DNA of 64,000 nucleotides from a phage: assembly GCA_029945195.1 (NCBI GenBank), contig GCA_029945195.1_4117.1; one strand, given 5' to 3'. Made by a program: the position numbers and the translations under genes. The notes beneath the pieces were generated by a model. The model made no database searches. It was not told where the DNA came from and saw nothing but the letters and a program-made list of their open reading frames with translations. Of the stretch, positions 1 to 12,930 are shown in pieces (positions within the stretch are counted from its first letter, which is position 1; each line of letters begins with the position of its first letter).

Positions 1-38
1 CCGTATTAAAAAGATCGCAGTACTTGAATAAAAAGTAC

Positions 39-66
39 TTGCAAACTAAGTTTAAACGCGTATAAT
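39..66 (+). promoter_or_regulatory. sigma70-type promoter (TTGCAA-16-TATAAT)
   Basis: -35 TTGCAA 39-44, -10 TATAAT 61-66; AGTACT in -35 flank. Confidence 0.6.
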
Positions 67-78
67 ACTTTATATCAG

Positions 79-97
79 GTGGGGAATAGTTCCCCAC
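79..97 (+). promoter_or_regulatory. 5' leader hairpin GTGGGGAA-TAG-TTCCCCAC
   Basis: perfect 8-bp inverted repeat about 13 nt after -10, upstream of SD AAGGAG 104-109. Confidence 0.6.
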
Positions 98-116
98 TAA
101 AGCAAGGAGTAATAAA

Positions 117-347
117 ATGACCACTATGTATATGATCGAATTGAAAGCCGTAAAAGATACTACCACAAATAAAACTACTTACTTACAGCGGATCTGCGGT
201 GTATGGCAACGTATTAGTAAAGTAAAGTACTATAAATTAACATCATATGCCAATCGTTCGGATTCATTCAGTACTGAAATAAAAGGTAATAAAGTACACC
301 AATACGGCACTTATTATTATTATAACCTGGACGCGATTGCAGTATAA
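117..347 (+). CDS. hypothetical early protein (76 aa)
   Basis: ORF track; SD AAGGAG 7 nt upstream; promoter+hairpin cassette. Confidence 0.6.
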   Translation: MTTMYMIELKAVKDTTTNKTTYLQRICGVWQRISKVKYYKLTSYANRSDSFSTEIKGNKVHQYGTYYYYNLDAIAV

Positions 348-377
348 GTAGTTTACAAATCTTTACAATTGCCAGTA

Positions 378-406
378 TTGACTTATTTTGTCAGTACTGG
401 CATAAT
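378..406 (+). promoter_or_regulatory. promoter TTGACT-17-CATAAT driving short noncoding unit
   Basis: -35 378-383, -10 401-406, CCAGTACTGG palindrome in spacer; conserved motif TAGCCCATAGGGTGCG at 429-444 downstream. Confidence 0.5.
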
Positions 407-521
407 GTATTCATTGGCAGATAAGCCGTAGCCCATAGGGTGCGGAAGTGTATCTATAGAAAAAGTAGTTTAGTACAGTTACAATTGTGCACCCGGTGGG
501 TTAGCTGTTGTCATGGGGTAT

Positions 522-550
522 ATTATACCAGTACTGGATAGTGCTGTCAA
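522..550 (-). promoter_or_regulatory. minus-strand promoter TTGACA-17-TATAAT convergent with 378-406
   Basis: minus-strand -35 at 545-550, -10 at 522-527; minus-strand copy of conserved motif at 488-505. Confidence 0.5.
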
Positions 551-595
551 TACCTTTTTACTATTCAGTACTGAAAACTATTTGATAAAAAGTAC

Positions 596-623
596 TTGCA
601 AACTATGTTTAAAAGCGTATAAT
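596..623 (+). promoter_or_regulatory. sigma70-type promoter (TTGCAA-16-TATAAT)
   Basis: -35 596-601, -10 618-623. Confidence 0.55.
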
Positions 624-630
624 GTTTTAC

Positions 631-705
631 ATCAGGACGGGGAACGAAATAAGTAACTTCCCGTTAAGTAGCCCAGGAGTAAGGCACACGAAAAACTCCC
701 CTGAT
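631..705 (+). ncRNA. conserved ~75-nt structured leader element, copy 1
   Basis: closed by ATCAGG/CCTGAT stem, internal hairpin ACGGGGAA..TTCCCGT; near-identical copy at 9669-9741 with the same flanking promoters. Confidence 0.4.
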
Positions 706-713
706 AAAATAGT

Positions 714-741
714 TTGACAATTGTTTTTAAAAGCGTATAAT
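714..741 (+). promoter_or_regulatory. sigma70-type promoter (TTGACA-16-TATAAT)
   Basis: -35 714-719, -10 736-741. Confidence 0.6.
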
Positions 742-773
742 ACTTACATCAACTACTGAATGAGGGTTACAAA

Positions 774-1385
774 ATGAAAACTATCACTACTACTACTTTC
801 GTTATGGATTTTTCTGAATTGAACGCAGAACAAAAAACGTCAGCTATCGAACTGGTTCGGGAACGTGAAAAAAACTCAAACGACAATTATTTTTCTGAAA
901 GTGAAATTGAATACTATAAAGAAACAGTACTACCGGAATATGGCATTAATGACGCTGAAATACAATTCAGTGGTTTTTGGTCCCAGGGTGACGGTGCATC
1001 AATCAGTACTGACCACGTTGACGCAGTGAAGTTTTTACGCAAGGTTAGAGCGTTAACTAAGTATCGCTCAATCCGTCACCTGCTGAATGAAGATGAATTA
1101 TCTATGAGGGTACAGCGTTCTCAATCCCGCTACTCACACGAAAACACTGTAAGCGGGTACATTGAATCGGGGTACACTGATTTAACAGCAAAACAGGAAG
1201 CGTTAGCCAATGAGCTTGAGGAATTGCTTACTGTTACTATTCGTGAATTATCTCGCAAGTTGTACCGTGATTTAGAGAATGCATATGAGGATCAATTCAC
1301 TACTGAGAACATCACGGCACTGATCGAGGGTAACGAGTATCAATTCAATGTTATTGATGGCGTAGTAGAATCAATCGCATATTAA
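774..1385 (+). CDS. hypothetical protein (203 aa)
   Basis: ORF track; SD GAGGG upstream; promoter 714-741. Confidence 0.65.
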   Translation: MKTITTTTFVMDFSELNAEQKTSAIELVREREKNSNDNYFSESEIEYYKETVLPEYGINDAEIQFSGFWSQGDGASISTDHVDAVKFLRKVRALTKYRSIRHLLNEDELSMRVQRSQSRYSHENTVSGYIESGYTDLTAKQEALANELEELLTVTIRELSRKLYRDLENAYEDQFTTENITALIEGNEYQFNVIDGVVESIAY

Positions 1386-1440
1386 TTTAGTACTGAGATA
1401 ATGGCGGGGAATGGTTCCCGCCTTTACTGAGGATTATCTA

Positions 1441-1647
1441 ATGAGTGATTTAATCGAACGTATCAAAGAGCTTGAAGAAAAAGAATTACAGTTAATCGGA
1501 TTGCGTAATAAAGTTTATTCAGAGCTTGGAGGCTTCATACAGGCTTGGGATAGTGGTGATCCTGATGCTTTACCTGCTAACCGCCAGGCGATGATCAATG
1601 ATGTGAGAAGTGTCTTTGATTATGTTTTAAAAAGTACTGGACACTAA
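1441..1647 (+). CDS. hypothetical protein (68 aa)
   Basis: track ORF 1411-1647 trimmed to ATG 1441: SD GAGGA 1428-1432; upstream in-frame ATG lies in hairpin 1403-1422. Confidence 0.5.
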   Translation: MSDLIERIKELEEKELQLIGLRNKVYSELGGFIQAWDSGDPDALPANRQAMINDVRSVFDYVLKSTGH

Positions 1648-1717
1648 GCAATAAAGGCGTATAATACTTTATATCGAGAGCGGGAATAGTTCCCGCTACT
1701 AATGAGGAATACTACAA

Positions 1718-1882
1718 ATGAATACTTTTACCTTCGCTCAATTGAACGCCCTGGATGTATTGTCTGATGCTTTGCGGGATGCAACTGAAAGCGGTTTATT
1801 TGACAATGTTGACATTCACCCTGATGTAATTAATAATTTTTGTGATGCTATCGCAGAAGTACTGGAAGATCTAAAAAAATAA
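1718..1882 (+). CDS. hypothetical small protein (54 aa, not in track)
   Basis: hand-translated; -10 TATAAT 1660-1665, hairpin 1679-1697, SD GAGGA 1704-1708. Confidence 0.5.
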   Translation: MNTFTFAQLNALDVLSDALRDATESGLFDNVDIHPDVINNFCDAIAEVLEDLKK

Positions 1883-1892
1883 TAGAAAGTAC

Positions 1893-1920
1893 TTGCAATT
1901 AGTTTTTAGTACTGTATAAT
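1893..1920 (+). promoter_or_regulatory. sigma70-type promoter (TTGCAA-16-TATAAT)
   Basis: -35 1893-1898, -10 1915-1920; AGTACTG immediately before -10. Confidence 0.6.
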
Positions 1921-1932
1921 AGTTTACATAGA

Positions 1933-1952
1933 GGGGAGAAATGGTTCTCCCT
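1933..1952 (+). promoter_or_regulatory. 5' leader hairpin GGGAGAA-ATGG-TTCTCCC
   Basis: inverted repeat between -10 and SD. Confidence 0.55.
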
Positions 1953-1970
1953 GGTAATGAGGAAAATAAA

Positions 1971-2192
1971 ATGGCTAATATCACTACTCTTTCTCAACTG
2001 GAAGCACTGGTTAAATCTATGCGGGAACATGCCGACAATATCGGCGTAAAAGATCCAGCCGTTTGCTTCTGCGACGAAATGAATGATGATACACTGGTAA
2101 TAGCAGAAGTACAAGATATTTCTAACTATTCATCGCGTTACACTGGCGGCGTAGCAAATAAAGGTGACTTCTGTTTATACCTTACCAAATAA
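1971..2192 (+). CDS. hypothetical protein (73 aa)
   Basis: track ORF 1941-2192 trimmed to ATG 1971 (SD GAGGA 1959-1963); upstream ATG sits in hairpin loop. Confidence 0.55.
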   Translation: MANITTLSQLEALVKSMREHADNIGVKDPAVCFCDEMNDDTLVIAEVQDISNYSSRYTGGVANKGDFCLYLTK

Positions 2193-2197
2193 CAACG

Positions 2198-2227
2198 CGG
2201 GGAGATAATAACTCCCCGTTACTTTTT
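2198..2227. terminator. rho-independent terminator-like hairpin (possibly bidirectional)
   Basis: CGGGGAG/CTCCCCG stem, then TTACTTTTT; also 3' of the minus-strand short unit. Confidence 0.5.
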
Positions 2228-2298
2228 CAGTACTGAATCATTTAATAGACGGATCTATGCACCCTGTGGGTTAGTGACTGTATCGTCTTTATGTAGTA

Positions 2299-2327
2299 AT
2301 TATGCCAGTACTGGATGCAGTTGTCAA
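2299..2327 (-). promoter_or_regulatory. minus-strand promoter TTGACA-17-CATAAT driving short noncoding unit
   Basis: minus -35 at 2322-2327, -10 at 2299-2304; conserved motif copy (minus) at 2258-2274. Confidence 0.5.
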
Positions 2328-2360
2328 CAATTATTTTTCAAATACTTTTTATTAAAATAC

Positions 2361-2388
2361 TTGCTATTAGTTTTTAAACGCGTATAAT
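2361..2388 (+). promoter_or_regulatory. sigma70-type promoter (TTGCTA-16-TATAAT)
   Basis: -35 2361-2366, -10 2383-2388; hairpin 2398-2416 follows. Confidence 0.55.
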
Positions 2389-2436
2389 GTTTTGCATAGG
2401 GGGAGCGGTTCCCCCTGGTAACTAAGGAATAAGAAA

Positions 2437-2673
2437 ATGCTTGAACAAATCAAATCAACGTCTGCTAATGTAACGGGAACGGTATCACACTTTATTGGTG
2501 ATGAATCGCGGGGCGTTCCCTATTGTGCTGTACATGTAAACACTGAGGGTAACTACTGGTTTACGGTTTACGGTTCATATTCATTTGGACGGCCAGGGCA
2601 TCAAAAAATTCTGGATAAAGTACAACCAACGGGTAAAAATATCACTGCCGAAATGTTTTATAAAAAATCATAA
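2437..2673 (+). CDS. hypothetical protein (78 aa)
   Basis: ORF track; SD AAGGA; promoter+hairpin cassette. Confidence 0.6.
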   Translation: MLEQIKSTSANVTGTVSHFIGDESRGVPYCAVHVNTEGNYWFTVYGSYSFGRPGHQKILDKVQPTGKNITAEMFYKKS

Positions 2674-2757
2674 AGTACTTGCAATTAGTTTTTAGTACTG
2701 TACAATATTTTACATCGCACGGGGGAGCGGTTCCCCCTGGTAACTAAGGATAATCAA

Positions 2758-3057
2758 ATGAAAATTGCAATCATCGCCCTGGCTTTATCTGTTTCCTCTT
2801 TCGCTGTTAACGCGTCGTTAGATGTACCTAGTGAAAAATTCATTCAGTGTACTGTTGCGATGACAGATGAAAGTACTGGCGAGATTGTTTTAAAGGATTT
2901 AGAGATCCAGCCAGAAGCATTTAAAAGCGGCCCGTTCCATGAAGAAGACGAAAAAGGTAGCACGACAATTTATTACGATGTAAGTACTAAGCGTGGATCG
3001 GTCACGGTTATGGATACTGAGAAAGTAACGCACACCGGAGTAATTAACTGTTTATAA
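2758..3057 (+). CDS. small secreted/periplasmic protein (99 aa)
   Basis: N-terminus MKIAIIALALSVSSFAVNAS is signal-peptide-like; SD AAGGA; promoter+hairpin upstream. Confidence 0.6.
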   Translation: MKIAIIALALSVSSFAVNASLDVPSEKFIQCTVAMTDESTGEIVLKDLEIQPEAFKSGPFHEEDEKGSTTIYYDVSTKRGSVTVMDTEKVTHTGVINCL

Positions 3058-3074
3058 TATAGTACTGAATCACT

Positions 3075-3103
3075 AGCCCACCTTAAACAGTGGGCTTTTT
3101 TGT
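3075..3103 (+). terminator. rho-independent terminator
   Basis: AGCCCAC-loop-GTGGGCT then TTTTTTG; exact duplicate at 3810-3837. Confidence 0.7.
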
Positions 3104-3305
3104 TTTTGTATTATCGTAGTACTGCATACTTTAAAAATAGTTTTAAAATAGTAGTTGACATTACCACAAAAAGGCGTAGAATGTATTACATCAAGACGGG
3201 GAGCACTAAGTAGACCGCCAGTAAGTCGAACGAAAAACTGGACACGTCGATAAAACTTTGATACACTAATAAACGTAAACTAAACTTTAATTGAGGATTT
3301 ATAAA

Positions 3306-3788
3306 ATGGCTAATGTAAAATCATTCCTGAAAGCACTGATTTCAAACGATACTGTTATTGCTGCTGAATTGTTGGCTGACCTGGATAACGATACCATGAA
3401 AGCAGTACGCAACAATTTTAACATTGCGTACAGTGAAGCTAAAGAACTGCAAGCCAAAAAGGTAGCAGAACTGGAAGAACAGAAAAAAGCCCGTGAAGCC
3501 GAACTGCAAGCAACAATCGAAAGTATCCAGGCGGCGGTGGCTGGATTGGATCTGGAAGTAGTTGTAGAAATGGCACATAAAGCCCTGGCGGTTAAGTATG
3601 GTGAAGATAAGCCAGAATCTAAACCTAAAAAATGGATTCAAGAACGTGTTACTGTAGTACTTGATAACGGGGAAGAACATATGATTCCTGTACGCGGTAA
3701 CTGCATTGCGGTAGTACTGGACGCTATCAAAGAAAGCGGTATGACTCGCGAGGAATGGATCGAAGCTCATCGCAAAGTTGAAGCATAA
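3306..3788 (+). CDS. hypothetical charged, helix-rich protein (160 aa)
   Basis: track ORF 3291-3788 trimmed to ATG 3306 (SD GAGGA); K/E/A-rich. Confidence 0.55.
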   Translation: MANVKSFLKALISNDTVIAAELLADLDNDTMKAVRNNFNIAYSEAKELQAKKVAELEEQKKAREAELQATIESIQAAVAGLDLEVVVEMAHKALAVKYGEDKPESKPKKWIQERVTVVLDNGEEHMIPVRGNCIAVVLDAIKESGMTREEWIEAHRKVEA

Positions 3789-3809
3789 CAATTAAAGTAC
3801 TGAATCACT

Positions 3810-3837
3810 AGCCCACCTTAAACAGTGGGCTTTTTTG
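3810..3837 (+). terminator. rho-independent terminator
   Basis: same AGCCCACCTTAAACAGTGGGCTTTTTT as 3075-3103. Confidence 0.7.
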
Positions 3838-3855
3838 TGTCTGTAGTATTCCAGT

Positions 3856-3955
3856 CCACCAGCACCGCCTAGAATCGATTCTAACGCATTAAACTGATTA
3901 TCTGATACATCGCCCTAGCTGGTGGCGTTAAGGTCGTTAGAATGCGATTGAGAGC
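3856..3955. repeat. interleaved inverted repeats containing Chi and its complement
   Basis: CCACCAGC 3856-3863 vs GCTGGTGG 3918-3925; ...AATCGATTCTAACGCATT 3874-3890 vs CGTTAGAATGCGATTGAG 3935-3952. Confidence 0.5.
3918..3925 (+). other. Chi site GCTGGTGG
   Basis: exact E. coli Chi octamer, intergenic. Confidence 0.6.
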
Positions 3956-4073
3956 GTTTAAATTATTTTGCAAAAAGTAATAAAAAGTACTTGCACGATT
4001 AAGAGATTAGCGTATAATGTTTTACATCGAGAGGGGGAAACGGTTCTCCTTCCAAATCAAAGGAATCAAAACA

Positions 4074-4301
4074 ATGGCTATTATCATTACTCGCGTATCT
4101 GGTACTACTGGCAACGAACAAGTAGTTGCAGTCATTACGAACAAGGCAGGTGCGGAATTGCAAAATGCAATGAATACCTGGGCCGTTAATGAGTTCGGTC
4201 AGTGGGCAAGTGTAGCATACATTGAAACCTATCAAGTGCCGACCATTAGTTTAACGGATCTTGGTGTGGAACGTATCCTTTGCCTGGATGAATTAAATTA
4301 A
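4074..4301 (+). CDS. hypothetical protein (75 aa)
   Basis: track ORF 4017-4301 trimmed to ATG 4074 (SD AAAGGA); MAII N-terminus shared with 4388 and 7178 genes. Confidence 0.55.
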   Translation: MAIIITRVSGTTGNEQVVAVITNKAGAELQNAMNTWAVNEFGQWASVAYIETYQVPTISLTDLGVERILCLDELN

Positions 4302-4387
4302 AAAAAGTACTTGCAAAGTAAATCGAATAAAGTATAATACATTACATCAAGGGGAGAAATGATTCTCCCCACTACAAGGAAACTAAA

Positions 4388-4600
4388 ATGGCTATCATTA
4401 CTAAAATCAAAGTTAACAAGACTATCGTTAAACTGGCAGAAGTGAAAGAAGGTTATAAAGTATCTTGGTGCGGTATGTATCGGACGTTCGCAGATATAGA
4501 TGATGCGATCAATTATTACAGTGACACGGTTAAAAACTTTGTTCGTGCTGATGTGGTTATGGCAGTGGCAACATATAAAGCAGCGAAAGAAAGTAAGTAA
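4388..4600 (+). CDS. hypothetical protein (70 aa)
   Basis: ORF track; promoter + hairpin 4351-4370 + SD AAGGA. Confidence 0.6.
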   Translation: MAIITKIKVNKTIVKLAEVKEGYKVSWCGMYRTFADIDDAINYYSDTVKNFVRADVVMAVATYKAAKESK

Positions 4601-4691
4601 AAATATTATCACAGTACTATTGACATAGTTTGATAGTACTGGCATAATAGATTTTATCAAGACGACACATATTAATTTAAGGAATACTAAA

Positions 4692-5015
4692 ATGGCTAAA
4701 ACTATCATCAACACCGTTTCCCTGGCTGCAATCCATGCAATCAATGTTGACGGTAAACGTTGGACTGATTCATATGGCAATACTTATCATTCTTGTCATG
4801 TAAGCGTTGAACTGGATAACGGCTTGAATGATCTGGCGGTTGAATCATTTACTTATGGCTATGAGGATGCATATCAACAAACGGCGGTATCACTCTTAAA
4901 GGAATCAGTAGACGGGCTTGATACTGTTGAAACCTCCCTCTATCGTTTGTGCAATGATCTTAATATCCCGTTGCATTGTACTGTACAGAATGTTAAACGC
5001 AAAAAAGATCTTTAA
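4692..5015 (+). CDS. hypothetical protein (107 aa), paralog of 10461-10784
   Basis: shares RWTDSxGNTYHSC..FTYGY..RKKD with 10461 ORF; promoter ATTGACA..CATAAT upstream. Confidence 0.65.
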   Translation: MAKTIINTVSLAAIHAINVDGKRWTDSYGNTYHSCHVSVELDNGLNDLAVESFTYGYEDAYQQTAVSLLKESVDGLDTVETSLYRLCNDLNIPLHCTVQNVKRKKDL

Positions 5016-5095
5016 TTAGCTTTACTTTATGCAGATACTTTGATATAGTGTCTGCATAGGAGAAAGAAATTAAATCAACTTAAGAGGATAGTAAA

Positions 5096-5365
5096 ATGAA
5101 AAATATCAGTACTTTAATCGATGCAGGTACACATGTTCGTCGGTCTATGGTTGCAACCAGTTCTACAAAACAAGTACCAAGCGGTTATCTTGTATTTGTG
5201 CACGATGGAAAACTCCTGGAACGTTCAATCAATTTTGATGTTAAAAACAATTGCCGTTTTATTATCTTTCGCCGTGAACAATATAAAATTGATTTGCCAG
5301 CGAAGCCCATTAGCGGGGCGTACAACGTGCAATCATTGTTTGAGCGTCAACCATACACCTATTGA
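5096..5365 (+). CDS. hypothetical protein (89 aa)
   Basis: ORF track; SD AGAGGA 8 nt upstream. Confidence 0.5.
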   Translation: MKNISTLIDAGTHVRRSMVATSSTKQVPSGYLVFVHDGKLLERSINFDVKNNCRFIIFRREQYKIDLPAKPISGAYNVQSLFERQPYTY

Positions 5366-5416
5366 TCAAATCATCGTCAGTGGTCGATTTAGGCCGCTTA
5401 TATTGGGGATTATACC

Positions 5417-5785
5417 ATGAACGTTAATCAAGTACTGAATGAGATCGAAAGCATCATTAAACCGATGAAGCGTACTGATGCTATGTTAACACCGGAAGAA
5501 TGCCGCCTTTATGAGCGTTACAGCGTCGAACAAGTCCAGGCAATGGCTAGTATCCTTCCGGTTAGTAGTACTGCTAAAGGTGGCCCAGGTTTAACCGTAC
5601 AGGATAAAATCGATCTCCTTAAGCTCAATGGCTATGTAGTTGATGTCGATAAAGAAAAAGTAATGGTATATGATAGTAGTATTGAGCAAGACTATTATAA
5701 CTATTGCATGATTGAAAATGATCCTATTGATTCTATCATTGAAAATATGGTTAACAAAGCATTAAAAGATTTAGATTTAGTTTGA
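5417..5785 (+). CDS. hypothetical protein (122 aa)
   Basis: ORF track. Confidence 0.55.
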   Translation: MNVNQVLNEIESIIKPMKRTDAMLTPEECRLYERYSVEQVQAMASILPVSSTAKGGPGLTVQDKIDLLKLNGYVVDVDKEKVMVYDSSIEQDYYNYCMIENDPIDSIIENMVNKALKDLDLV

Positions 5786-5859
5786 CAGTACTGTAAAAAG
5801 GCGTATAATGTTTTACATAGAGGGGGGAAATGGTTCTCCCCAATAACAGGAGATACAAA

Positions 5860-6012
5860 ATGAAACAATACAACGCTCGGTTTGATGTTACTATCGGTAA
5901 CGGCAAAGGTCAATTCTCTTTCAGTACTCGACGCAGTTATACAGAAAACTTCCTGCGTAATTGTGCACTGACCGCCGCACAAATTAAACATTACTTTCAG
6001 GCTAAAAAATGA
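5860..6012 (+). CDS. hypothetical small protein (50 aa)
   Basis: track ORF 5830-6012 trimmed to ATG 5860 (SD AGGAG); hairpin about 5820-5842 upstream. Confidence 0.5.
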   Translation: MKQYNARFDVTIGNGKGQFSFSTRRSYTENFLRNCALTAAQIKHYFQAKK

Positions 6013-6098
6013 AATCATTAGCTTATTACAGTTCGGCCCTGGTCGGTGCATTGATCGCGGCGTTGTTAGTAACCTATCTATTCTTTATGGTGATTTAA
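6009..6098 (+). CDS. small hydrophobic membrane peptide (29 aa, not in track)
   Basis: hand-translated MKSLAYYSSALVGALIAALLVTYLFFMVI; ATGA overlap with upstream gene. Confidence 0.4.
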   Translation: MKSLAYYSSALVGALIAALLVTYLFFMVI

Positions 6099-6233
6099 AT
6101 GAATCCTAACGGTATAGTTTACAGTACTCCTAAAACTAAAGCAGATAAAGCTAAAGCACGTAAAGCGAAAGTACAGGAATACATCAAGCAAGGCATGACA
6201 CGAAAGGCCGCAGTACTTAAAGCTAAAAAATAA
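6099..6233 (+). CDS. small basic peptide (44 aa, not in track)
   Basis: hand-translated, lysine-rich; start abuts upstream stop. Confidence 0.4.
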   Translation: MNPNGIVYSTPKTKADKAKARKAKVQEYIKQGMTRKAAVLKAKK

Positions 6234-6237
6234 ATGA

Positions 6238-6314
6238 AAAAAGTGGTTGACTTCGGTCAGCCATTTTGCTATTATATATTCATTGAGAGATAGCTCACTA
6301 GCCCACAGGGTGCA
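6238..6314 (+). repeat. composite intergenic repeat, copy A
   Basis: hairpin 6238-6267 with embedded TTGACT 6247-6252 and TATTAT 6270-6275; conserved motif CTAGCCCACAGGGTGCA 6298-6314. Confidence 0.6.
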
Positions 6315-6368
6315 GGAGTGTATCTATTGTATAATGTTTGAGTACTGAAAACTATTTTTAAAAAGTAC

Positions 6369-6396
6369 TTGCAAACTATCTCAATAAGCGTATAAT
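6369..6396 (+). promoter_or_regulatory. sigma70-type promoter (TTGCAA-16-TATAAT)
   Basis: -35 6369-6374, -10 6391-6396; hairpin 6410-6428. Confidence 0.6.
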
Positions 6397-6447
6397 GTTT
6401 TACATCGAAAGGGGAAACGGTTTCCCCTGGTAATAAGGAAACAAATC

Positions 6448-6789
6448 ATGACTATCTCAATTGCTCAATCTAACTTTGAAAATGAAATCATCGCCCAGGC
6501 ACTGCGTTTAAATGATGGTCGGGCCGAAATTAATTACGGTTTCAATTCAGGCGGTTGCGAAAAATATCAGTACTTTACAACGGCTGATGGCTGTGTCCTG
6601 GGCATCAATACAGTTATTGTAAACATTCAGAAAATTAATTTCAATGATCCAGACGATAGCCAGTTTTACATTGTAGGCGTAGACGTGAATTATGAGGATG
6701 ATTCACTAACTGATGATCACACTGGCGAGAAGTTAGAAAGTGCATACGGTGAAGATGATTATCAGTCAGTACCGGAAGATTTTGAATAA
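6448..6789 (+). CDS. hypothetical acidic protein (113 aa)
   Basis: ORF track; SD AAGGA; promoter+hairpin cassette. Confidence 0.6.
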   Translation: MTISIAQSNFENEIIAQALRLNDGRAEINYGFNSGGCEKYQYFTTADGCVLGINTVIVNIQKINFNDPDDSQFYIVGVDVNYEDDSLTDDHTGEKLESAYGEDDYQSVPEDFE

Positions 6790-6882
6790 TATTAAAAAAT
6801 AGTTTGACAATAGATTATAGTACTGTATAATAGTTTACATCAAGGGGAGAATAGTTCTCCCCACTAACAGAGAGAAAACAAA

Positions 6883-7095
6883 ATGGCTAATATCTGCACT
6901 GCTCTGAAAAATGCAAAACAAGTTTTATTTTCTGATCACGATCATTTAAACAAGGATATTACTGGCGTTCGGAATATCAAAGATGTAAAAAGTGTTATGG
7001 GTATCTATTGCAATATGAAACGTGTTGGAACGTTCGGCGACAAAGTACTATACCAGGCAGGGGATTACAATTTTACACTGACGATCATTAACTAA
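6883..7095 (+). CDS. hypothetical protein (70 aa)
   Basis: ORF track; hairpin 6844-6862 upstream. Confidence 0.6.
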   Translation: MANICTALKNAKQVLFSDHDHLNKDITGVRNIKDVKSVMGIYCNMKRVGTFGDKVLYQAGDYNFTLTIIN

Positions 7096-7177
7096 AAATA
7101 TTATCACAGTACTATTGACATAGTTTGATAGTACTGACATAATAACTTTTATCAACTACACTACTAAGGAATTAAAA

Positions 7178-7357
7178 ATGGCTATCATCGCAAAAACTGA
7201 AATCATCGGCCTGGATTCTATCATCATGACGTTTGAAGATCAAAAAGGTATGTATGTAGTTTCATATGGTGATTATGTTCGGGAGTATGAAACGGTAGAC
7301 GAAGCCTTTGAAAGTTACATTCGCCAGGTGAATAAAGCATACGACGACTACCGCTAA
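7178..7357 (+). CDS. hypothetical small protein (59 aa, not in track)
   Basis: hand-translated MAIIAKTEIIG...; promoter ATTGACA..CATAAT and SD AAGGA upstream. Confidence 0.5.
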   Translation: MAIIAKTEIIGLDSIIMTFEDQKGMYVVSYGDYVREYETVDEAFESYIRQVNKAYDDYR

Positions 7358-7456
7358 AATATATTACCAGTACTATTAAAGATATTGACAACGTTTGATA
7401 GTACTGTATAATAAGTTTTATAAACAGTAGTTAACTTAACCTAAGAGAGAAACAAA

Positions 7457-7600
7457 ATGATCGCACTGGATTCATTCATCGACGCAGTACTGGCAAAAAC
7501 TGGCGAGGATCTTACCGCAGAACAATACGCGATGATCGAACAATGTCAACAGGACGGTAAATCGGTGAAAGATACTGTTAAGATTATCCGCAAGATGTAA
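7457..7600 (+). CDS. hypothetical small protein (47 aa, not in track)
   Basis: hand-translated; promoter TTGACA..TATAAT and SD AGAGAGA upstream. Confidence 0.45.
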   Translation: MIALDSFIDAVLAKTGEDLTAEQYAMIEQCQQDGKSVKDTVKIIRKM

Positions 7601-7606
7601 GATTAT

Positions 7607-7634
7607 AGCCCACTGGTTAACGCTGGTGGGCTTT
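7607..7634 (+). terminator. terminator-like hairpin containing Chi
   Basis: AGCCCAC/GTGGGCT stem 7607-7613/7626-7632 with Chi 7622-7629 spanning loop and 3' arm; weak T tract. Confidence 0.45.
7622..7629 (+). other. Chi site GCTGGTGG
   Basis: exact octamer. Confidence 0.6.
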
Positions 7635-7699
7635 AATTCATTACCCTATACAATGCCAGTACTAAACCGTTTATCTCGTTAGAATGCGTTACAGGACGT

Positions 7700-7903
7700 T
7701 TGACAATGATTAGCATGAAATCAGTACAAAAACAAATAGAAACATTATCAAAAATTAAACGTAAACAGTACTCCTTAGAATATACAATCAATGGTAACTA
7801 TCATCTAATGAAAGAAAATAATTTTATAGTCATTGATGAATCATTGCAAATCATTAGTATAGTACTGAAAGCATTAATCAATGACAGAAAAAAATTAAAA
7901 TAA
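7700..7903 (+). CDS. hypothetical protein (67 aa)
   Basis: ORF track; AT-rich, no strong SD. Confidence 0.35.
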   Translation: MTMISMKSVQKQIETLSKIKRKQYSLEYTINGNYHLMKENNFIVIDESLQIISIVLKALINDRKKLK

Positions 7904-7907
7904 TCTA

Positions 7908-7977
7908 TTGACAAATTATGCCAGTACTGGCATAATACTTACATCAAGACGAGAACGTCACTAACCCATAGGGTGCA
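7908..7977 (+). promoter_or_regulatory. promoter TTGACA-17-CATAAT plus conserved motif CTAACCCATAGGGTGCA
   Basis: -35 7908-7913, -10 7931-7936, motif 7961-7977. Confidence 0.5.
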
Positions 7978-8234
7978 CAAATGTAACTGTATAATATTGA
8001 TCAAAAAATGATCTGATCAATACTTGTTCAATTTGCGTAAAGTAGTATAATTCTATGCAGTTGGTTAGACGAAAGGTTATGATTAGTAGTGGAAGTGTAT
8101 AAAAATTTTCATGGTGTGGTGTTCCGCACATATGGGGATGAATATGTCGTGTCGTATGGATTGGAAAAAGTAAAAACAAGTAATATACTTGTCGCGTTAC
8201 AGTACTATAGTAATTTTATAATGAGGTTAAAATA

Positions 8235-8492
8235 ATGGCTGTAGGATTCACGAAAGATGGGGCCGAGCAAGACGAGATTAACGCAGTGATTCAGGCCGCT
8301 GTTAACCACGCTAGAACGCAAATTAACGCACAAATAGAATCACTGATACATTGCCTCGACTGCGGCGATAAAATCCCTGAGAATCGCCGCCAGGCAGTTA
8401 AGGGGTGTAAGTACTGCATAACTTGCCAGGAGGATCATGATAGTATTTTTAAACGTCAACCGCGTAATTGTTGGCATAGATCTATGAGATAA
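8235..8492 (+). CDS. TraR/DksA-family C4 zinc-finger protein (85 aa)
   Basis: CLDCGDKIPENRRQAVKGCKYCITCQ matches the CxxC-x17-CxxC TraR/DksA C-terminal zinc finger. Confidence 0.6.
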   Translation: MAVGFTKDGAEQDEINAVIQAAVNHARTQINAQIESLIHCLDCGDKIPENRRQAVKGCKYCITCQEDHDSIFKRQPRNCWHRSMR

Positions 8493-8573
8493 AAAGTATT
8501 GACAGTACTGAAAGATAGTGTATACTGTATTACATCAAGGGGAAACGTCTTCCCCTACTAAGAGGAAATGAAA

Positions 8574-8762
8574 ATGGAAAACTTATCAAGTATTTTAGTA
8601 CAAGATGATTTCGGTAATCCTGGAAGTGCTATCATCGTTCGGGGCAATAAGGCAACGTTTGTTATTGCTGGTGGGCCTGTACAGCGTAGCATTAAAAACA
8701 ATGCAGTTACAATCAATAATGTTCGCTATCGCTTAGATAAAGAATTGATTCATAAACTTTAA
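8574..8762 (+). CDS. hypothetical protein (62 aa)
   Basis: track ORF 8568-8762 trimmed to ATG 8574 (SD AGAGGA 8561-8566); hairpin 8538-8556. Confidence 0.5.
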   Translation: MENLSSILVQDDFGNPGSAIIVRGNKATFVIAGGPVQRSIKNNAVTINNVRYRLDKELIHKL

Positions 8763-8848
8763 AAAAAGTATTTGACAAAGCATCGTAGTACTGTATAATA
8801 GTTTACATGAAGGGGAGAAATGATTCTCCCCACTAAGAGGAAAGAAAC

Positions 8849-9061
8849 ATGCAAGGTCAACTAATCGTTCGTAAATGGTCTGATACTAACGAAAAACCGT
8901 GGGATGTTCAATATATCGGACCAGACGGTGTTTCACGTTATCAACCTGGCGTAACGCATAGTACTGAGCAATATGCCGCCGCTCACCGTGAACGCCTGTT
9001 AGAATCTATGAAACAGGGATTCTGTGAAAAATTCATTCAAGATCATTGGCTGAAAGATTAA
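8849..9061 (+). CDS. hypothetical protein (70 aa)
   Basis: ORF track; promoter + hairpin 8812-8831. Confidence 0.6.
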   Translation: MQGQLIVRKWSDTNEKPWDVQYIGPDGVSRYQPGVTHSTEQYAAAHRERLLESMKQGFCEKFIQDHWLKD

Positions 9062-9080
9062 TATATAAGGAGTACAGCTT

Positions 9081-9173
9081 ATGCAAATGAATCCGATGAT
9101 TGTTGTGTTAGCTGTACTTATGATCATTCATGCCATCGTAGAAGTACTAACACAATCAGGAGTAATACAATGA
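9081..9173 (+). CDS. small hydrophobic membrane peptide (30 aa, not in track)
   Basis: hand-translated MQMNPMIVVLAVLMIIHAIVEVLTQSGVIQ; SD AAGGAG upstream. Confidence 0.45.
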   Translation: MQMNPMIVVLAVLMIIHAIVEVLTQSGVIQ

Positions 9174-9340
9174 TCCAGGTGGAATTATCAGTACTGAAAG
9201 ATCTGTTTTATCGGTTAGGCACTACTGGCGAATACCCTAAAGGGGATACTGCTAAACTATACATTGCATTGGATGTATGGCAACGTAATGAACTGGCTAA
9301 CGCCTGGCGTAAAGGTAAATCAGAGGGGATTGCAGCATGA
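9170..9340 (+). CDS. hypothetical small protein (56 aa, not in track)
   Basis: hand-translated; ATGA overlap with neighbours. Confidence 0.45.
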   Translation: MIQVELSVLKDLFYRLGTTGEYPKGDTAKLYIALDVWQRNELANAWRKGKSEGIAA

Positions 9341-9486
9341 AAGAATTTTTATTCGAAGTAGTGTTCCAGGGCGTAGGAAGTAACCAACTGATACGATCAA
9401 GTGGTTACAATGTTAACCAGGCATGGAATAACATTAAACAAATGTACCCGAACGCTATCACCTATCGCAACCCAAAACAAGTTTAA
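9337..9486 (+). CDS. hypothetical small protein (49 aa, not in track)
   Basis: hand-translated; ATGA overlap. Confidence 0.45.
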   Translation: MKEFLFEVVFQGVGSNQLIRSSGYNVNQAWNNIKQMYPNAITYRNPKQV

Positions 9487-9497
9487 AAAGAATTGAA

Positions 9498-9567
9498 AAA
9501 GGGATTGACTCCGGTCAGTCCCTTTGCTATTATATATTCATTGAAACAATCTAGCCCACAGGGTGCA
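9498..9567 (+). repeat. composite intergenic repeat, copy B
   Basis: hairpin 9498-9525 with embedded TTGACT 9505-9510 and TATTAT 9528-9533; motif CTAGCCCACAGGGTGCA 9551-9567. Confidence 0.6.
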
Positions 9568-9585
9568 TAAATGTATCTATTGTTT

Positions 9586-9593
9586 GCTGGTGG
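9586..9593 (+). other. Chi site GCTGGTGG
   Basis: exact octamer, intergenic. Confidence 0.6.
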
Positions 9594-9633
9594 CTAGTAC
9601 TATCAAGTACTGAAAACTATTTTTAAAAAGTAC

Positions 9634-9661
9634 TTGCATTGTACTTAGAATCAAGTATAAT
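9634..9661 (+). promoter_or_regulatory. sigma70-type promoter (TTGCAT-16-TATAAT)
   Basis: -35 9634-9639, -10 9656-9661. Confidence 0.55.
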
Positions 9662-9668
9662 GTTTTAC

Positions 9669-9741
9669 ATCAGGACGGGGAACGAAATAAGTAACCCCGT
9701 TAAGTAGTCCAGGAGTAAGACATACGAAAACCTCCCCTGAT
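9669..9741 (+). ncRNA. conserved ~75-nt structured leader element, copy 2
   Basis: about 90% identical to 631-705 with the same flanking promoters. Confidence 0.4.
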
Positions 9742-9748
9742 AAAATAG

Positions 9749-9777
9749 TTTGACAATAGAAATTAAACGAGTATAAT
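9749..9777 (+). promoter_or_regulatory. sigma70-type promoter (TTGACA-17-TATAAT)
   Basis: -35 9749-9754, -10 9772-9777. Confidence 0.6.
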
Positions 9778-9807
9778 ACTTACATCAACCACAAAGAGGA
9801 ATACAAA

Positions 9808-10008
9808 ATGAAACATTTTACTTTCGGTGTAGTAGGCTTTACAGTATCCAGCGGCGTTTATAAATCAGAACGCGGTGCTAAAAATGCAGCAAGTCGGGCG
9901 TATGGTTCACAGCGTGACTTACAGGTCGGTTATATTAGTAACATTAATAACATGTTTATTCCTGTTTCACAGCGTAAAGCGGGTAACATGAAATGGGAAA
10001 CAATTTGA
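9808..10008 (+). CDS. hypothetical protein (66 aa)
   Basis: ORF track; SD AGAGGA. Confidence 0.6.
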   Translation: MKHFTFGVVGFTVSSGVYKSERGAKNAASRAYGSQRDLQVGYISNINNMFIPVSQRKAGNMKWETI

Positions 10009-10097
10009 TAAAATAGTTTGACAATAGTTTTTAGTACTGTATAATATTTTACATCAAGTGGGGAATAGTTCCCCACCTAACAAAGAGAGAAATTAAA

Positions 10098-10373
10098 ATG
10101 CGGATTCTACTGACAGCTAACGAAATCGAGCAAGTACTGACTACTAACCTGGAACAATGGAAACGTGATGCAGATATCCAGGCGGTACAATGGCTTAACG
10201 ATAAGTTAACGCCGGATGACTTAAGCAAGATTGTAGATCCTCAATTCTACGAAGATATTCACGACACCGCGTTAAGCGTCGAGGATGTACTTGATAAGCA
10301 CTATATTGATACTGATTTACAGGTTTACGGTCGTAAAAACTTTATCACTATTCACGACATTTACAATACTTAA
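10098..10373 (+). CDS. hypothetical acidic protein (91 aa)
   Basis: ORF track; hairpin 10059-10077. Confidence 0.6.
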   Translation: MRILLTANEIEQVLTTNLEQWKRDADIQAVQWLNDKLTPDDLSKIVDPQFYEDIHDTALSVEDVLDKHYIDTDLQVYGRKNFITIHDIYNT

Positions 10374-10460
10374 GTATTGACAAAGTATCTTAGTACTGTA
10401 TAATAGTTTACATCAAGGCAGGGGAATGGTTCCCCTCCTAACTAAAAGAGAGAAATTAAA

Positions 10461-10784
10461 ATGGCTATGATCCTTACCCAGAAAGTAGAAATGAAAATTG
10501 TAACTTCCTTTGACATTAAAGTTAATCGGTGGACTGATAGCCACGGCAATACTTACCACTCATGCTACGTGTCTGCATTGATTGGTGACCGCTGGGAAGA
10601 CCTGGGACACGAAACATTTACTTACGGTTACGGCACACAAGGCGAGTACACTGGTTTGGAAATCATTAAGGAAACTGTAATAGGTTTCAACCCGAAAGAG
10701 AAAGTACTACACAGAATTGAGAAAGAGATCAACAAAGAAATTACAGTTCGATACTACGATGTAAAACGTAAGAAAGACATGTAA
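10461..10784 (+). CDS. hypothetical protein (107 aa), paralog of 4692-5015
   Basis: shared RWTDSHGNTYHSC / FTYGY / KRKKD motifs; hairpin 10420-10436. Confidence 0.65.
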   Translation: MAMILTQKVEMKIVTSFDIKVNRWTDSHGNTYHSCYVSALIGDRWEDLGHETFTYGYGTQGEYTGLEIIKETVIGFNPKEKVLHRIEKEINKEITVRYYDVKRKKDM

Positions 10785-10883
10785 TAGAATCCATTTAAAG
10801 TACTATTTGACATTGCCCAGATAGTACTTTATAATAGACTCTAACTTGTAGTACTAATTAACTTAACTAATAGGATGTACACC

Positions 10884-11279
10884 ATGATTACTAAATTCTT
10901 CGCTACCCGTGAACAAGCTCGCATCGTTGCCCGTGAAGAAGGTGAAACATTTAAAGACATGGGCAAAGATGCACCGAAAGGACAACGCTGGGCGGTACAG
11001 TTCAAAGAGATCTCTGATATTGTGAATTCACCTGAGCCTGTACTTACAGCAGCAGAACTAAAGCAAGCTCAAGAACTGGCTGAAGTACTGAACGCTCAAG
11101 ATGACTTTTTGAAAGGTTCTGATATTGAAGTTACAGTTAACGCAAATGCATGGACTCACGCGGATCACCTGGCAAACCTTAAGCGTCCAAGTGAACTGAT
11201 TCGTAACCAGAAAGAGATCCGTCATGACCGTAAAGGAAACCGTGTAACAGTATACAGTAAACGCCGCCAGGTTATCTAA
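10884..11279 (+). CDS. hypothetical protein (131 aa)
   Basis: track ORF 10875-11279; second ATG 10884 better spaced from AGGA. Confidence 0.55.
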   Translation: MITKFFATREQARIVAREEGETFKDMGKDAPKGQRWAVQFKEISDIVNSPEPVLTAAELKQAQELAEVLNAQDDFLKGSDIEVTVNANAWTHADHLANLKRPSELIRNQKEIRHDRKGNRVTVYSKRRQVI

Positions 11280-11302
11280 TAACTTTGCAGTACTAACAAC
11301 AC

Positions 11303-11327
11303 GGCGGGAACTATTCCCGCCTTTTTT
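11303..11327 (+). terminator. rho-independent terminator
   Basis: GGCGGGAA-CTA-TTCCCGCC then TTTTTT. Confidence 0.7.
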
Positions 11328-11341
11328 ATAGGATAAACAAA

Positions 11342-11596
11342 ATGATTAAGGTTCAACTATCAAACGATAATGTATTACGGGTACACTATAAAGCCCCACA
11401 GAGAATCATCACAAAGGCCGTACAGCTTGCTAATGAGTTTATTAATGGTAGTCTATTGCCTAGGAAGTTAAGCAACGGGAAACTACGTGTAATCGACGTA
11501 GACACTAACAATAGAATAGTGATCGAGAGTACTGGAAAAATTAATCTATATGAACACCAACAATACAATAAAAAAATAAAACTAATATCACGTTGA
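11342..11596 (+). CDS. hypothetical protein (84 aa)
   Basis: ORF track; SD AGGA. Confidence 0.55.
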   Translation: MIKVQLSNDNVLRVHYKAPQRIITKAVQLANEFINGSLLPRKLSNGKLRVIDVDTNNRIVIESTGKINLYEHQQYNKKIKLISR

Positions 11597-11621
11597 CAGT
11601 ACTCAAATGTTTTAGTATTAT
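11593..11621 (+). promoter_or_regulatory. promoter TTGACA-17-TATTAT
   Basis: TTGACAGTACTCAAATGTTTTAGTA block duplicated at 11874-11902. Confidence 0.5.
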
Positions 11622-11654
11622 GTATCTATACCAACACAGAGAGAGAGAAACAAA

Positions 11655-11873
11655 ATGAAATTATCTAAAATCGAAAAGAAAACTATTGATGAAGCAGTGA
11701 AGCACGGTTATACCTTTCGTAATGATTCACACTTCACTAGTTTTCAACAGGGAAACCGTACCATCAAAAAACTCATTGATAAAGGTTTACTCACTAAGGT
11801 TGATAACGGGAACGGTGTAGAATATCAACCGACAGAAGACGCATTATCACTAAAGAAATATTCTATTATCTAA
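11655..11873 (+). CDS. hypothetical protein (72 aa)
   Basis: ORF track. Confidence 0.55.
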   Translation: MKLSKIEKKTIDEAVKHGYTFRNDSHFTSFQQGNRTIKKLIDKGLLTKVDNGNGVEYQPTEDALSLKKYSII

Positions 11874-11902
11874 TTGACAGTACTCAAATGTTTTAGTACT
11901 AT
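11874..11902 (+). promoter_or_regulatory. promoter TTGACA-17-TACTAT (duplicate of 11593-11621)
   Basis: near-identical 30-nt block. Confidence 0.5.
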
Positions 11903-11930
11903 GTACGCATACCAACACGGGGAAAACAAA

Positions 11931-12173
11931 ATGATTACTTTAGAAAAACGTATCAAAGAGACTACAACGCTGGTGGAACTGTTAACCGTTCTTAAATGCC
12001 GGGTAACTCCATTCAGTACACCGGACTTTATCAACATGGTGGACGTTAACGGTCGATATCGTATTGCGGTCGAACAAGGTACGGCAAAAGTATTCAGTAC
12101 TAAAAATACGCGTGAAGTATTCCACGCAGTTCAAGTAAAAAAAGTAGTTGCCATTGATAGTAAAGTACTGTAA
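11931..12173 (+). CDS. hypothetical protein (80 aa)
   Basis: track ORF 11874-12173 trimmed to ATG 11931 (SD GGGGAAAA). Confidence 0.5.
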   Translation: MITLEKRIKETTTLVELLTVLKCRVTPFSTPDFINMVDVNGRYRIAVEQGTAKVFSTKNTREVFHAVQVKKVVAIDSKVL

Positions 12174-12204
12174 TATAGTTTCATTAACTCAAGGAGTCAA
12201 CACA

Positions 12205-12789
12205 ATGCGTAACTATACTAAATTCATCCGTTCACTTCATGCAATGGAAACCAACAAAGAGATCCTTTCAGCTTGTCGGTTAGCTGGACTGGAGATCGTC
12301 GGTGCGGGTTCTTCCCGTATTGTATTCGCTTTAAATGATCGGTTAGTGATTAAGGTCGCGAATTGTGATGCGGGTGTAGAACAAAATGAAACTGAATGTA
12401 AGGTATGGAATTTTTTAGATTATGACCGTCCGCACCTTAAACAGTACTTTGCTAAAGTGCATATGCATTTATGCGATCCTGATAATCTGTTTATTGTTAT
12501 GGATCGTTTGAGTACTGCAAGCAAAGGCAGTGTAAAGCATGTAAACGCGTGCAATGAGTTAAAGTACAATATTAAACGTAATACGGTAGAACGCCATCAC
12601 CATTTCGCTGATGCTCTCAATCACGTTGATGATACATTATCCACACTAACGATAAGAGATATCAGAAAACAGAATATCGGCCAGGATCGCAACGGCTTGA
12701 TTAAAGTACTTGATTACGGTTTAACCCGCAATATCTGGAATCAGTACTATAAAAAACGTGATGTTAACGCGATAACTATAACACGATAA
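12205..12789 (+). CDS. minimal eukaryotic-like protein kinase fold (194 aa)
   Basis: track ORF trimmed to ATG 12205 (SD AAGGAG); Gly loop VGAGSSRIVF, LVIKV lysine, hinge FIVMDRL, catalytic loop IRDIRKQNIG, DYG; C-lobe subdomains VIII-XI absent. Confidence 0.55.
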   Translation: MRNYTKFIRSLHAMETNKEILSACRLAGLEIVGAGSSRIVFALNDRLVIKVANCDAGVEQNETECKVWNFLDYDRPHLKQYFAKVHMHLCDPDNLFIVMDRLSTASKGSVKHVNACNELKYNIKRNTVERHHHFADALNHVDDTLSTLTIRDIRKQNIGQDRNGLIKVLDYGLTRNIWNQYYKKRDVNAITITR

Positions 12790-12800
12790 AAAAGATTAAA

Positions 12801-12875
12801 AAAGGGATTGACTCCAGTCAGTCCCTTTGCTATTATATATTCATTGAGAGATAACTCACTGACCCATAGGGTGCG
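12801..12875 (+). repeat. composite intergenic repeat, copy C
   Basis: hairpin 12801-12828 with embedded TTGACT 12808-12813 and TATTAT 12831-12836; motif CTGACCCATAGGGTGCG 12859-12875. Confidence 0.6.
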
Positions 12876-12930
12876 GAAGTGTATCTATTATATAAGTATT
12901 CAGTACTGAAAACTATTTTATAAAAAGTAC

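Follow-up and report, generated by a model that had tools for sequence, protein, structure and literature searches.

The 64,000-nucleotide stretch of phage DNA examined here (NCBI GenBank assembly GCA_029945195.1, contig GCA_029945195.1_4117.1; referred to below as the window) carries at 3856-3955 an element of two interleaved inverted repeats, one arm of which is the octamer Chi, and which an earlier note had taken as a possible pseudoknot-like RNA or a pair of alternative cruciforms. Comparison with related genomes gives a different picture. The element is terminator-to-promoter spacer DNA within a long direct terminal repeat (DTR), not a conserved RNA or cruciform, and its plus-strand Chi belongs to an array of co-oriented Chi sites confined to that repeat. 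The array probably engages RecBCD at the genome ends, the element being a spacer that carries one of its sites. From the sequence and statistics of these sites, their conservation, their orientation and their confinement to the DTR, we infer both the involvement of RecBCD and a recombinational outcome.

The phage is an Asteriusvirus-type jumbo coliphage, akin to PBECO4 and 121Q; positions 3300-4400 are 98.5% identical to Escherichia phage PBECO4 and match 46 phage records, almost all of them Asteriusvirus-type jumbo coliphages or Salmonella phages with genomes of 348-386 kb. In one of these relatives, vB_Ec-M-J, the stretch orthologous to the element sits within an annotated DTR of 21,525 bp (1-21525), and in another Asteriusvirus, fEgEco12, a DTR of 20,993 bp has been confirmed by PhageTerm and restriction digests (PMC13070987). 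By collinear BLAST blocks, the window begins near DTR coordinate 3097 and passes the right DTR boundary near its position 16,550, a boundary that coincides with what had earlier been described as a 16.4-kb iteron-like region. Up to that point the window consists of small plus-strand genes in a row, many of which have a promoter or terminator to themselves.

Chi occurs nine times in the window against 0.43 expected, a number reached by none of 100 shuffles, and its distribution is uneven. In the DTR part (1-16,550) there are seven plus-strand copies and one minus-strand copy (the X' arm of the element), where Markov models of orders 1-3 predict 0.13-0.23 copies on the plus strand (Poisson P about 6e-9 for the seven); all Markov expectations for Chi given here, from models of orders 1, 3 and 5, are for that strand. 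The 47 kb of the window outside the DTR hold no plus-strand and one minus-strand copy (0.12-0.28 expected, orders 1-3). Among the 168 octamers that share its composition Chi, with seven copies, is the most frequent, none of the others exceeding three, and it ranks third for observed over expected among octamers with at least five copies; the other octamers at the top of that ranking seem to come from the repeated terminator, 5'-untranslated-region (5'-UTR) and promoter modules. The flanks of the seven sites all differ and are unrelated to each other, and all seven sites are kept at orthologous positions in vB_Ec-M-J and EC22.5-2, with flank identities of 84-96%. Four of the seven are intergenic, though about 65% of the vB_Ec-M-J DTR is coding. 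The Chi sites of the DTR are placed wherever the sequence is free to vary, in spacers, in terminator stems and in some codons, and the one at 3918 is the first of the co-oriented set to fall within the window. The site at 7622 lies in the 3' arm of a terminator-like hairpin, the 17-mer CTGGTTAACGCTGGTGG (window 7613-7629), which is found in identical form at 19345-19361 of the Klebsiella phage fENko-Kae01.

Other genomes show the same confinement. The DTR of vB_Ec-M-J has nine plus- and two minus-strand copies (0.18-0.35 expected, orders 1-3), and the 18.5 kb beyond it have none on either strand (0.04-0.11 expected, orders 1-3). The DTR-equivalent 21 kb of EC22.5-2 also carry nine and two (0.18-0.34 expected, orders 1-3), as compared with seven and ten in the other 330 kb, which is about the Markov level (4.9-6.8 expected, orders 3-5); put otherwise, 9 of the 16 plus-strand Chi in the whole genome lie in 6% of its length (binomial P = 8e-8). 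Outside that region EC22.5-2 also has three minus-strand Chi about 255 bp apart (9277, 9535 and 9790), probably within tandem paralogous genes. The array recurs in fENko-Kae01, which shares only about 29% average nucleotide identity with the Asteriusvirus group (PMC13070987): its PhageTerm-defined DTR of 19,736 bp has twelve plus- and two minus-strand copies (0.16-0.59 expected, orders 1 and 3), followed by one on each strand in the next 30 kb (0.10-0.19 expected, orders 1 and 3). The sites of fENko-Kae01 are at non-orthologous positions, several of them in promoters, between the -35 and -10 boxes, or in terminator stems. About 0.5 kb in from the left terminus, outside the stretch covered by the window, vB_Ec-M-J (588-607), fENko-Kae01 (484-503) and EC22.5-2 (30331-30350) have a back-to-back pair of Chi, CCACCAGC-N4-GCTGGTGG, whose two halves form a perfect 8-bp hairpin. 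A scan of viral contigs for CCACCAGC-N2-8-GCTGGTGG matched more than 120 unrelated ones and carries no information on these pairs. The 10.2-kb DTR of T5 has two top-strand Chi, at 8127 and 8689, and no minus-strand one, with none in the next 20 kb; the direction is that of the jumbo phages, in numbers too small to interpret.

Read in the top strand, 5'-GCTGGTGG-3' activates RecBCD coming from the right end and moving left (PMC12315714). The plus-to-minus ratios of 7:1 in the DTR part of the window, 9:2 in vB_Ec-M-J and 12:2 in fENko-Kae01 therefore fit the right-hand copy of the repeat; in the left-hand copy it is only the minus-strand Chi that fit. Counting from the right terminus, plus-strand Chi are met at 1.4, 1.6, 3.2 and 5.1 kb in vB_Ec-M-J and at 0.38, 1.0, 1.9 and 2.9 kb in fENko-Kae01, with further ones beyond in both, and a minus-strand Chi, half of the back-to-back pair, stands 0.59 kb and 0.48 kb, respectively, from the left terminus. 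The exact octamer, its over-representation, its terminal concentration and its orientation bias, which characterize the terminal Chi arrays of phages P1 and LLS, are thus all found here. In the element itself, X' and X are best read as two opposed Chi, 62 nt apart from start to start and of the same kind as the back-to-back pair, rather than as the two sides of a helix.

In the mechanism we envisage, the packaged genome would be linear with one DTR copy at each end, and RecBCD would load on the free ends following injection. An enzyme entering at the right end and moving leftwards would reach the top-strand Chi from their 3' side, the active orientation, and would have nine of them before it in the vB_Ec-M-J repeat; one entering at the left end would reach a minus-strand Chi, 0.6 kb in for the relatives, and the X' site in most genomes. 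Each Chi is recognised by RecBCD only part of the time, so that an array would make recognition nearly certain. Once Chi was recognised, RecBCD would turn from degradation to the loading of RecA on a 3' tail of DTR sequence, and that tail could pair with the other DTR copy, leading to end protection, circularisation, concatemer formation or recombination-primed replication. The element would then be a bidirectional Chi station in a DTR-wide array, and its Y arms and palindrome are most simply taken as ordinary upstream DNA of a strong early promoter, possibly with factor sites. The idea of a recombination hotspot, which had been raised along with the structures, is the part of the earlier proposal that the evidence favours, because the Chi belongs to a co-oriented, DTR-confined array and not because of any hairpin geometry. 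For the wider group we lean, on balance, towards the view that virulent jumbo phages of the Rak2/Asteriusvirus type maintain a DTR-confined Chi array, made up of many top-strand sites from 0.4-1.4 kb off the right terminus and a back-to-back pair about 0.5 kb off the left, that would let RecBCD join their repeats of about 20 kb.

The repeats that first drew attention to the element are real. The X pair (CCACCAGC, 3856-3863, with GCTGGTGG, 3918-3925) is complementary at eight of eight positions and the order X', Y, X, Y' is correct; the Y pair (ATTCTAACG, 3878-3886, with CGTTAGAAT, 3935-3943) is complementary at nine of nine and is lengthened over a 1-nt bulge by five more pairs, AATCG (3873-3877) with CGATT (3945-3949), and the start of its left arm is at 3873 rather than 3874. 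Chi was rightly recognised, and the element was rightly placed between the terminator (3810-3837) and the next promoter (3986-4018). That terminator is indeed duplicated, the stem-loop AGCCCACCTTAAACAGTGGGCT being identical at 3075 (3075-3096) and 3810. The recurrences that had been pointed out were found as well, the core as TCGTTAGAATGCG at 7676-7688, 3' of the Chi at 7622, and AATGCGT in the 16.4-kb region as AATGCGTWA at 16398 and 16453. Little about the arrangement or its core is out of the ordinary, however. The window has 15 interleaved pairs made up of perfect inverted repeats 8 nt or longer (mean 5.9 and maximum 12 in first-order Markov simulations), and the arrangement at 3856-3955 is not unusual for a window of this size. 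With up to two mismatches allowed the 13-mer TCGTTAGAATGCG recurs at the level of chance (2 found, 1.0 expected); its copy in the element is not conserved among relatives, while the copy at 7676 is. A dispersed repeat family, sought in the window with blastn-short and nhmmer, was set aside, as the searches yielded only the 13-mer at 7676 and, from nhmmer, two matches of marginal significance (E = 0.045 and 0.086). Also rejected was a 9-10-bp phasing of CGTT/CGAT motifs at 3926-3958 and 7677-7700, 5' of two gene starts: both phased runs contain the shared 13-mer, and the phasing of the first is not conserved and is probably chance.

An alignment of the spacer from 14 related genomes, of about 86-98.5% identity, separates the parts of the element. 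The Chi arm, within TAGCTGGTGG, is invariant in all 14. The X' arm is intact in 10, having become CCACTAGC in G17, SHEFM2K and A4 and CCGTCAGC in 121Q. The right Y arm reads CTGTAAGAACGCG in E9.1, phAPEC6 and Turkey3 and has other variants in TH47 and CMSTMSU, in each case with no matching change in the left arm. The palindrome TAGAATCGATTCTA, which overlaps the left Y arm, is broken by a T-to-A change in E9.1, BF17, TH47 and CMSTMSU, and G17, which lacks 12 aligned columns here (11 nt net), has lost most of it. The earlier note had itself named lack of conservation in related genomes as the observation that would tell against its structures, and judged in that way they fail: the palindrome, the right Y arm and X' all vary among the relatives. 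The nucleotide diversity of the element as a whole (0.072) is low next to that of third codon positions in the flanking genes (0.17-0.22) and of the adjacent 3838-3855 (0.24). Over the whole DTR, however, the divergence between vB_Ec-M-J and the window is 0.077 for intergenic DNA and 0.186 at third codon positions, as compared with 0.06 for the element, whose conservation thus does not exceed that of the remaining intergenic DNA there; its low diversity is therefore not evidence of special function.

Against this background a pseudoknot-like regulatory RNA, produced by terminator read-through or from a small RNA gene, seems highly improbable. Its X helix can be paired in plus-strand RNA of all 14 genomes, though only by way of G-U pairs, RNAalifold retains that helix in the consensus structure, and the element is more conserved than third codon positions, as such an RNA would lead one to expect; but that conservation is the DTR intergenic average, and none of the 22 pairs of the exact X/Y pseudoknot, counted on the 14-genome alignment, shows a compensatory change. 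Of the Y pairs four are disrupted, each in 2-5 genomes and always by one-sided changes, the variation in X consists of three transitions that all fall on the X' side, in four genomes, and RNAalifold reports no covarying pair and an unfavourable covariation term (+1). The alternative cruciforms are not supported either. RNA folds of 3845-3965 are no better than those of shuffled sequences (z = -0.87 for the plus and -0.40 for the minus strand), and ARAGORN and Rfam, the latter at gathering thresholds, find no tRNA, tmRNA or Rfam family in the whole window. The region also lies 3' of a good terminator and 5' of the next promoter, and a scan of both its strands sees no promoter-like site; each TAGAAT was considered as part of an internal promoter and dropped, since no acceptable -35 was apparent by eye or in the scan and the TAGAAT at 3938 is not conserved. 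Sites acting as DNA, either as cruciforms or as operators at which a dimeric regulator, from phage or host, controls the early promoter downstream, have somewhat more to recommend them and would be compatible with the Chi array, yet we consider them unlikely. The candidates are the perfect 14-bp palindrome TAGAATCGATTCTA, TATCnGATA (one of further short palindromes) and the Y arms, at about 50-160 bp upstream of a strong promoter module; the blocks CTAACG and TATCTGAT are invariant in the 14 genomes, and the plus-strand fold of 3856-3955 with DNA parameters is the only nominally unusual one (z = -2.46, with 3 of 200 shuffles as good). Such operators are hard to reconcile with a palindrome that four genomes have in broken form and that G17 has mostly lost while keeping its promoter intact, with a right Y arm that is the most variable part of the element, with how common interleaved inverted repeats of this size are in the window, and with the other ten promoter modules, upstream of which no similar element was seen, nhmmer on the window giving only the marginal matches already mentioned.

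A protein-coding role for the element is scarcely credible. Plus-strand coding was discarded on six-frame translation of the 14 genomes, which puts stops everywhere on that strand, and the candidate on the minus strand is a 30-aa open reading frame running from 3973 down to 3881. It is annotated as a coding sequence in JP4, E9.1 and SHEFM2K, is open in 11 of the 14 genomes, and has its highest diversity at third codon positions (0.10, as compared with 0.072 at first and 0.037 at second positions); but its start codon is TTG and is preceded by no Shine-Dalgarno sequence, codon 2 is a stop in BF17 and A4, the frame is shifted in CMSTMSU, the amino acid is altered by many of the substitutions, the frame is antisense to all of the neighbouring genes, and neither a PHROG or Pfam match nor, in the scan, a minus-strand promoter was found for it. 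It is probably a spurious over-call of gene finders. The Chi octamers might, finally, be a compositional or historical by-product, their source being DNA derived from the host, repeats of codons or promoter modules, or a phage-protein site that happens to resemble Chi; this we think unlikely. The DTR is richer in G+C than the rest of the genome (0.38 vs 0.32) and its plus strand is G-rich, some of the sites are in coding sequence, and a fifth-order Markov model raises the expectation to 0.9-1.9, a model that is partly fitted to the Chi copies themselves. Even so, a third-order model fitted to the DTR itself leaves an excess of about 26- to 30-fold, and the unrelated flanks mean that Chi is not part of a longer repeat. 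At about 0.42 Chi per kb, counted on one strand, the sites are several times as dense as in E. coli K-12 on average (1 per 4.6 kb on both strands; PMC12315714). A by-product would also have to account for the strong orientation bias and for the independent appearance of the same array, at non-orthologous positions, in a phage as distant as fENko-Kae01.

The Chi array at the genome ends thus remains the reading we prefer, and several points weigh against it. The role given to RecBCD in these phages is deduced from sequence, and the termini of this genome are taken from those of its relatives. A phage inhibitor of RecBCD, an end-protecting protein or a recombinase of the phage's own would weaken the need for Chi. 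Most plus-strand Chi of the left DTR copy face the wrong way for entry from the left end, so that the model leans on the right-hand copy and on one or two minus-strand sites; of these, the one at 3856, lost in 4 of the 14 genomes, is the dispensable half of its opposed pair. The G-richness of the plus strand favours G-rich words in general, an effect for which the Markov expectations computed within the DTR already allow. Nor does Chi account for the invariant blocks CTAACG and TATCTGAT, for the nominally stable DNA hairpin (z = -2.46) or for the palindromes.

Clusters of Chi at phage termini are already known for P1 and a class of lambdoid phages; for these jumbo phages we found no report, searches of full-text literature having turned up nothing on Chi in Asteriusvirus, in fENko-Kae01 or in DTRs generally, which is no proof of novelty. 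For P1 a terminal Chi cluster has been proposed to drive recombination between terminal repeats by RecBCD and RecA after injection (Subramaniam and Smith, bioRxiv 10.1101/2021.07.08.451572). P1 and the present phage have in common the use of the host Chi octamer, strongly over-represented and concentrated where the ends of the packaged DNA fall. They differ in that P1 is temperate, with headful packaging from pac and variable ends, whereas this phage is virulent, has a genome of about 350 kb and fixed repeats of about 21 kb, with an array that ends at the repeat boundary; the dependence on RecBCD, moreover, is known for P1 and is drawn here from sequence. In phage LLS clustered terminal Chi have been proposed to drive RecBCD-dependent growth (PMC12315714). 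LLS and Pseudomonas phage MD8 resemble the jumbo phages in having many co-oriented Chi toward one end, in the orientation active for RecBCD entering there (PMC12315714), and in Chi being among their most over-represented octamers. They are, however, cos-type lambdoid phages of about 40-60 kb without long DTRs, in which high Chi density correlates with the absence of a phage Rec module (PMC12315714), and for LLS there is experimental evidence of RecBCD dependence. T5 offers a likeness of another kind, with a long exact DTR that holds small early genes, strong sigma-70-type promoters and terminators between them, this being its first-step-transfer pre-early region; its DTR is only about 10 kb with two plus-strand Chi, and two-step DNA transfer is a T5 feature of which nothing here gives a sign in Asteriusvirus.

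On how giant virulent phages with DTRs protect their ends and convert linear DNA to a replicating form, the genome papers only assume recombination between the repeats (PMC13070987); the array points to RecBCD. If this is right, exploitation of Chi would extend from temperate P1 and the lambdoid phages to giant virulent phages with fixed ends, and RecBCD would be turned from a destroyer of injected linear DNA into a joiner of terminal repeats. An array that is confined to the DTR, co-oriented and conserved across genera makes the question testable by simple host and Chi-site mutants. For phage therapy, the RecBCD status or anti-RecBCD defences of target strains could affect the host range of this genus. 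For annotation, the 3856/3918 "inverted repeat" should be read as two Chi and not as a hairpin.

The features of the element, its neighbours and the Chi array are collected in the table.

Table. Coordinates of the element, neighbouring features and DTR Chi sites in the window
Feature	Position	Strand	Basis or remark
Inner part of the DTR of about 21 kb	1..16550	none	Collinear alignment to the vB_Ec-M-J DTR
Upstream gene, 160 aa, phrog_27871, function not assigned	3306..3788	+	Coding sequence in PBECO4, 121Q and others; PHROG E = 3.5e-92
Intrinsic terminator, 7-bp stem, 8-nt loop, T-run	3810..3837	+	Terminator scan; annotated terminator in G17
Minus-strand Chi (X' arm), top strand CCACCAGC	3856..3863	-	Orientation active for RecBCD moving rightwards
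Perfect 14-bp palindrome TAGAATCGATTCTA, overlapping the left Y arm	3870..3883	none	Sequence
Left Y arm AATCGATTCTAACG	3873..3886	+	Sequence and relatives
Plus-strand Chi (X arm) GCTGGTGG	3918..3925	+	Orientation active for RecBCD moving leftwards
Right Y arm CGTTAGAATGCGATT	3935..3949	+	Most variable stretch of the element in the alignment
Conserved A/T-rich stretch directly 5' of the promoter	3953..3985	+	Diversity 0.028; nearly invariant in the alignment
DTR early-promoter module AGTACTTGCAC-N16-TATAAT	3986..4018	+	One of 11 copies
Downstream gene, 75 aa, phrog_13850, function not assigned	4074..4301	+	Third codon position most variable
Chi within 3' arm of terminator-like hairpin	7622..7629	+	Exact match
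Chi in coding sequence	8667..8674	+	Exact match
Chi, intergenic, about 45 nt upstream of a promoter module	9586..9593	+	Exact match
Chi in coding sequence	11969..11976	+	Exact match
Chi in coding sequence	13376..13383	+	Exact match
Chi, intergenic, upstream of a promoter; nearest in the window to the right DTR boundary	15176..15183	+	Exact match

The gene upstream of the element has diversities of 0.07, 0.04 and 0.22 at the three codon positions. The A/T-rich stretch between the element and the promoter resembles an UP element and may function as one. The promoter itself, which drives the 75-aa gene at 4074-4301, belongs to a module, AGTACTTGMA-N16-TATAAT, of which there are 11 copies against 0.01 expected. 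Every copy lies on the plus strand and falls within 34-15665, and what typically comes next is TTTTACATC with a G-rich/C-rich 5'-UTR hairpin; the copies look like a DTR-specific class of early promoter. In T4-type phages the promoter-early stem-loop (PeSL), a repeated module of promoter and hairpin, flanks small early genes, and PeSLs appear to be joints for the exchange of gene cassettes. There is some resemblance here, in that G17, 121Q, CMSTMSU and A4 carry an extra gene of 50 aa together with a second promoter exactly at the promoter module, in the equivalent of about 4018-4074, the insertion point lying immediately 3' of TATAAT/TTACATC in the 3986-4018 promoter, which suggests an exchange of cassettes at the repeated promoter modules. 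The sequences of the two kinds of module differ, and PeSLs are not known to be tied to Chi.

The motif AATGCGTWA is present in eight copies in the window, as compared with 1.25 expected. Three of them (16398-16856, including those at 16398 and 16453) lie together where the right DTR boundary is inferred, with further short repeats, both direct and inverted, around them at 16428-16660, and this cluster may be a terminus, packaging or boundary signal; the others are at 3882 (minus strand), 7683, 12204, 22930 and 57576. Elsewhere in the DTR, two long unannotated intergenic runs of vB_Ec-M-J, 3446-3870 and 5503-5745 (about 350-774 and 2194-2436 of the window), are unusually conserved, with divergences of 2.6% and 2.9% vs 18.6% at third codon positions, and could hold unannotated small genes or non-coding RNAs.

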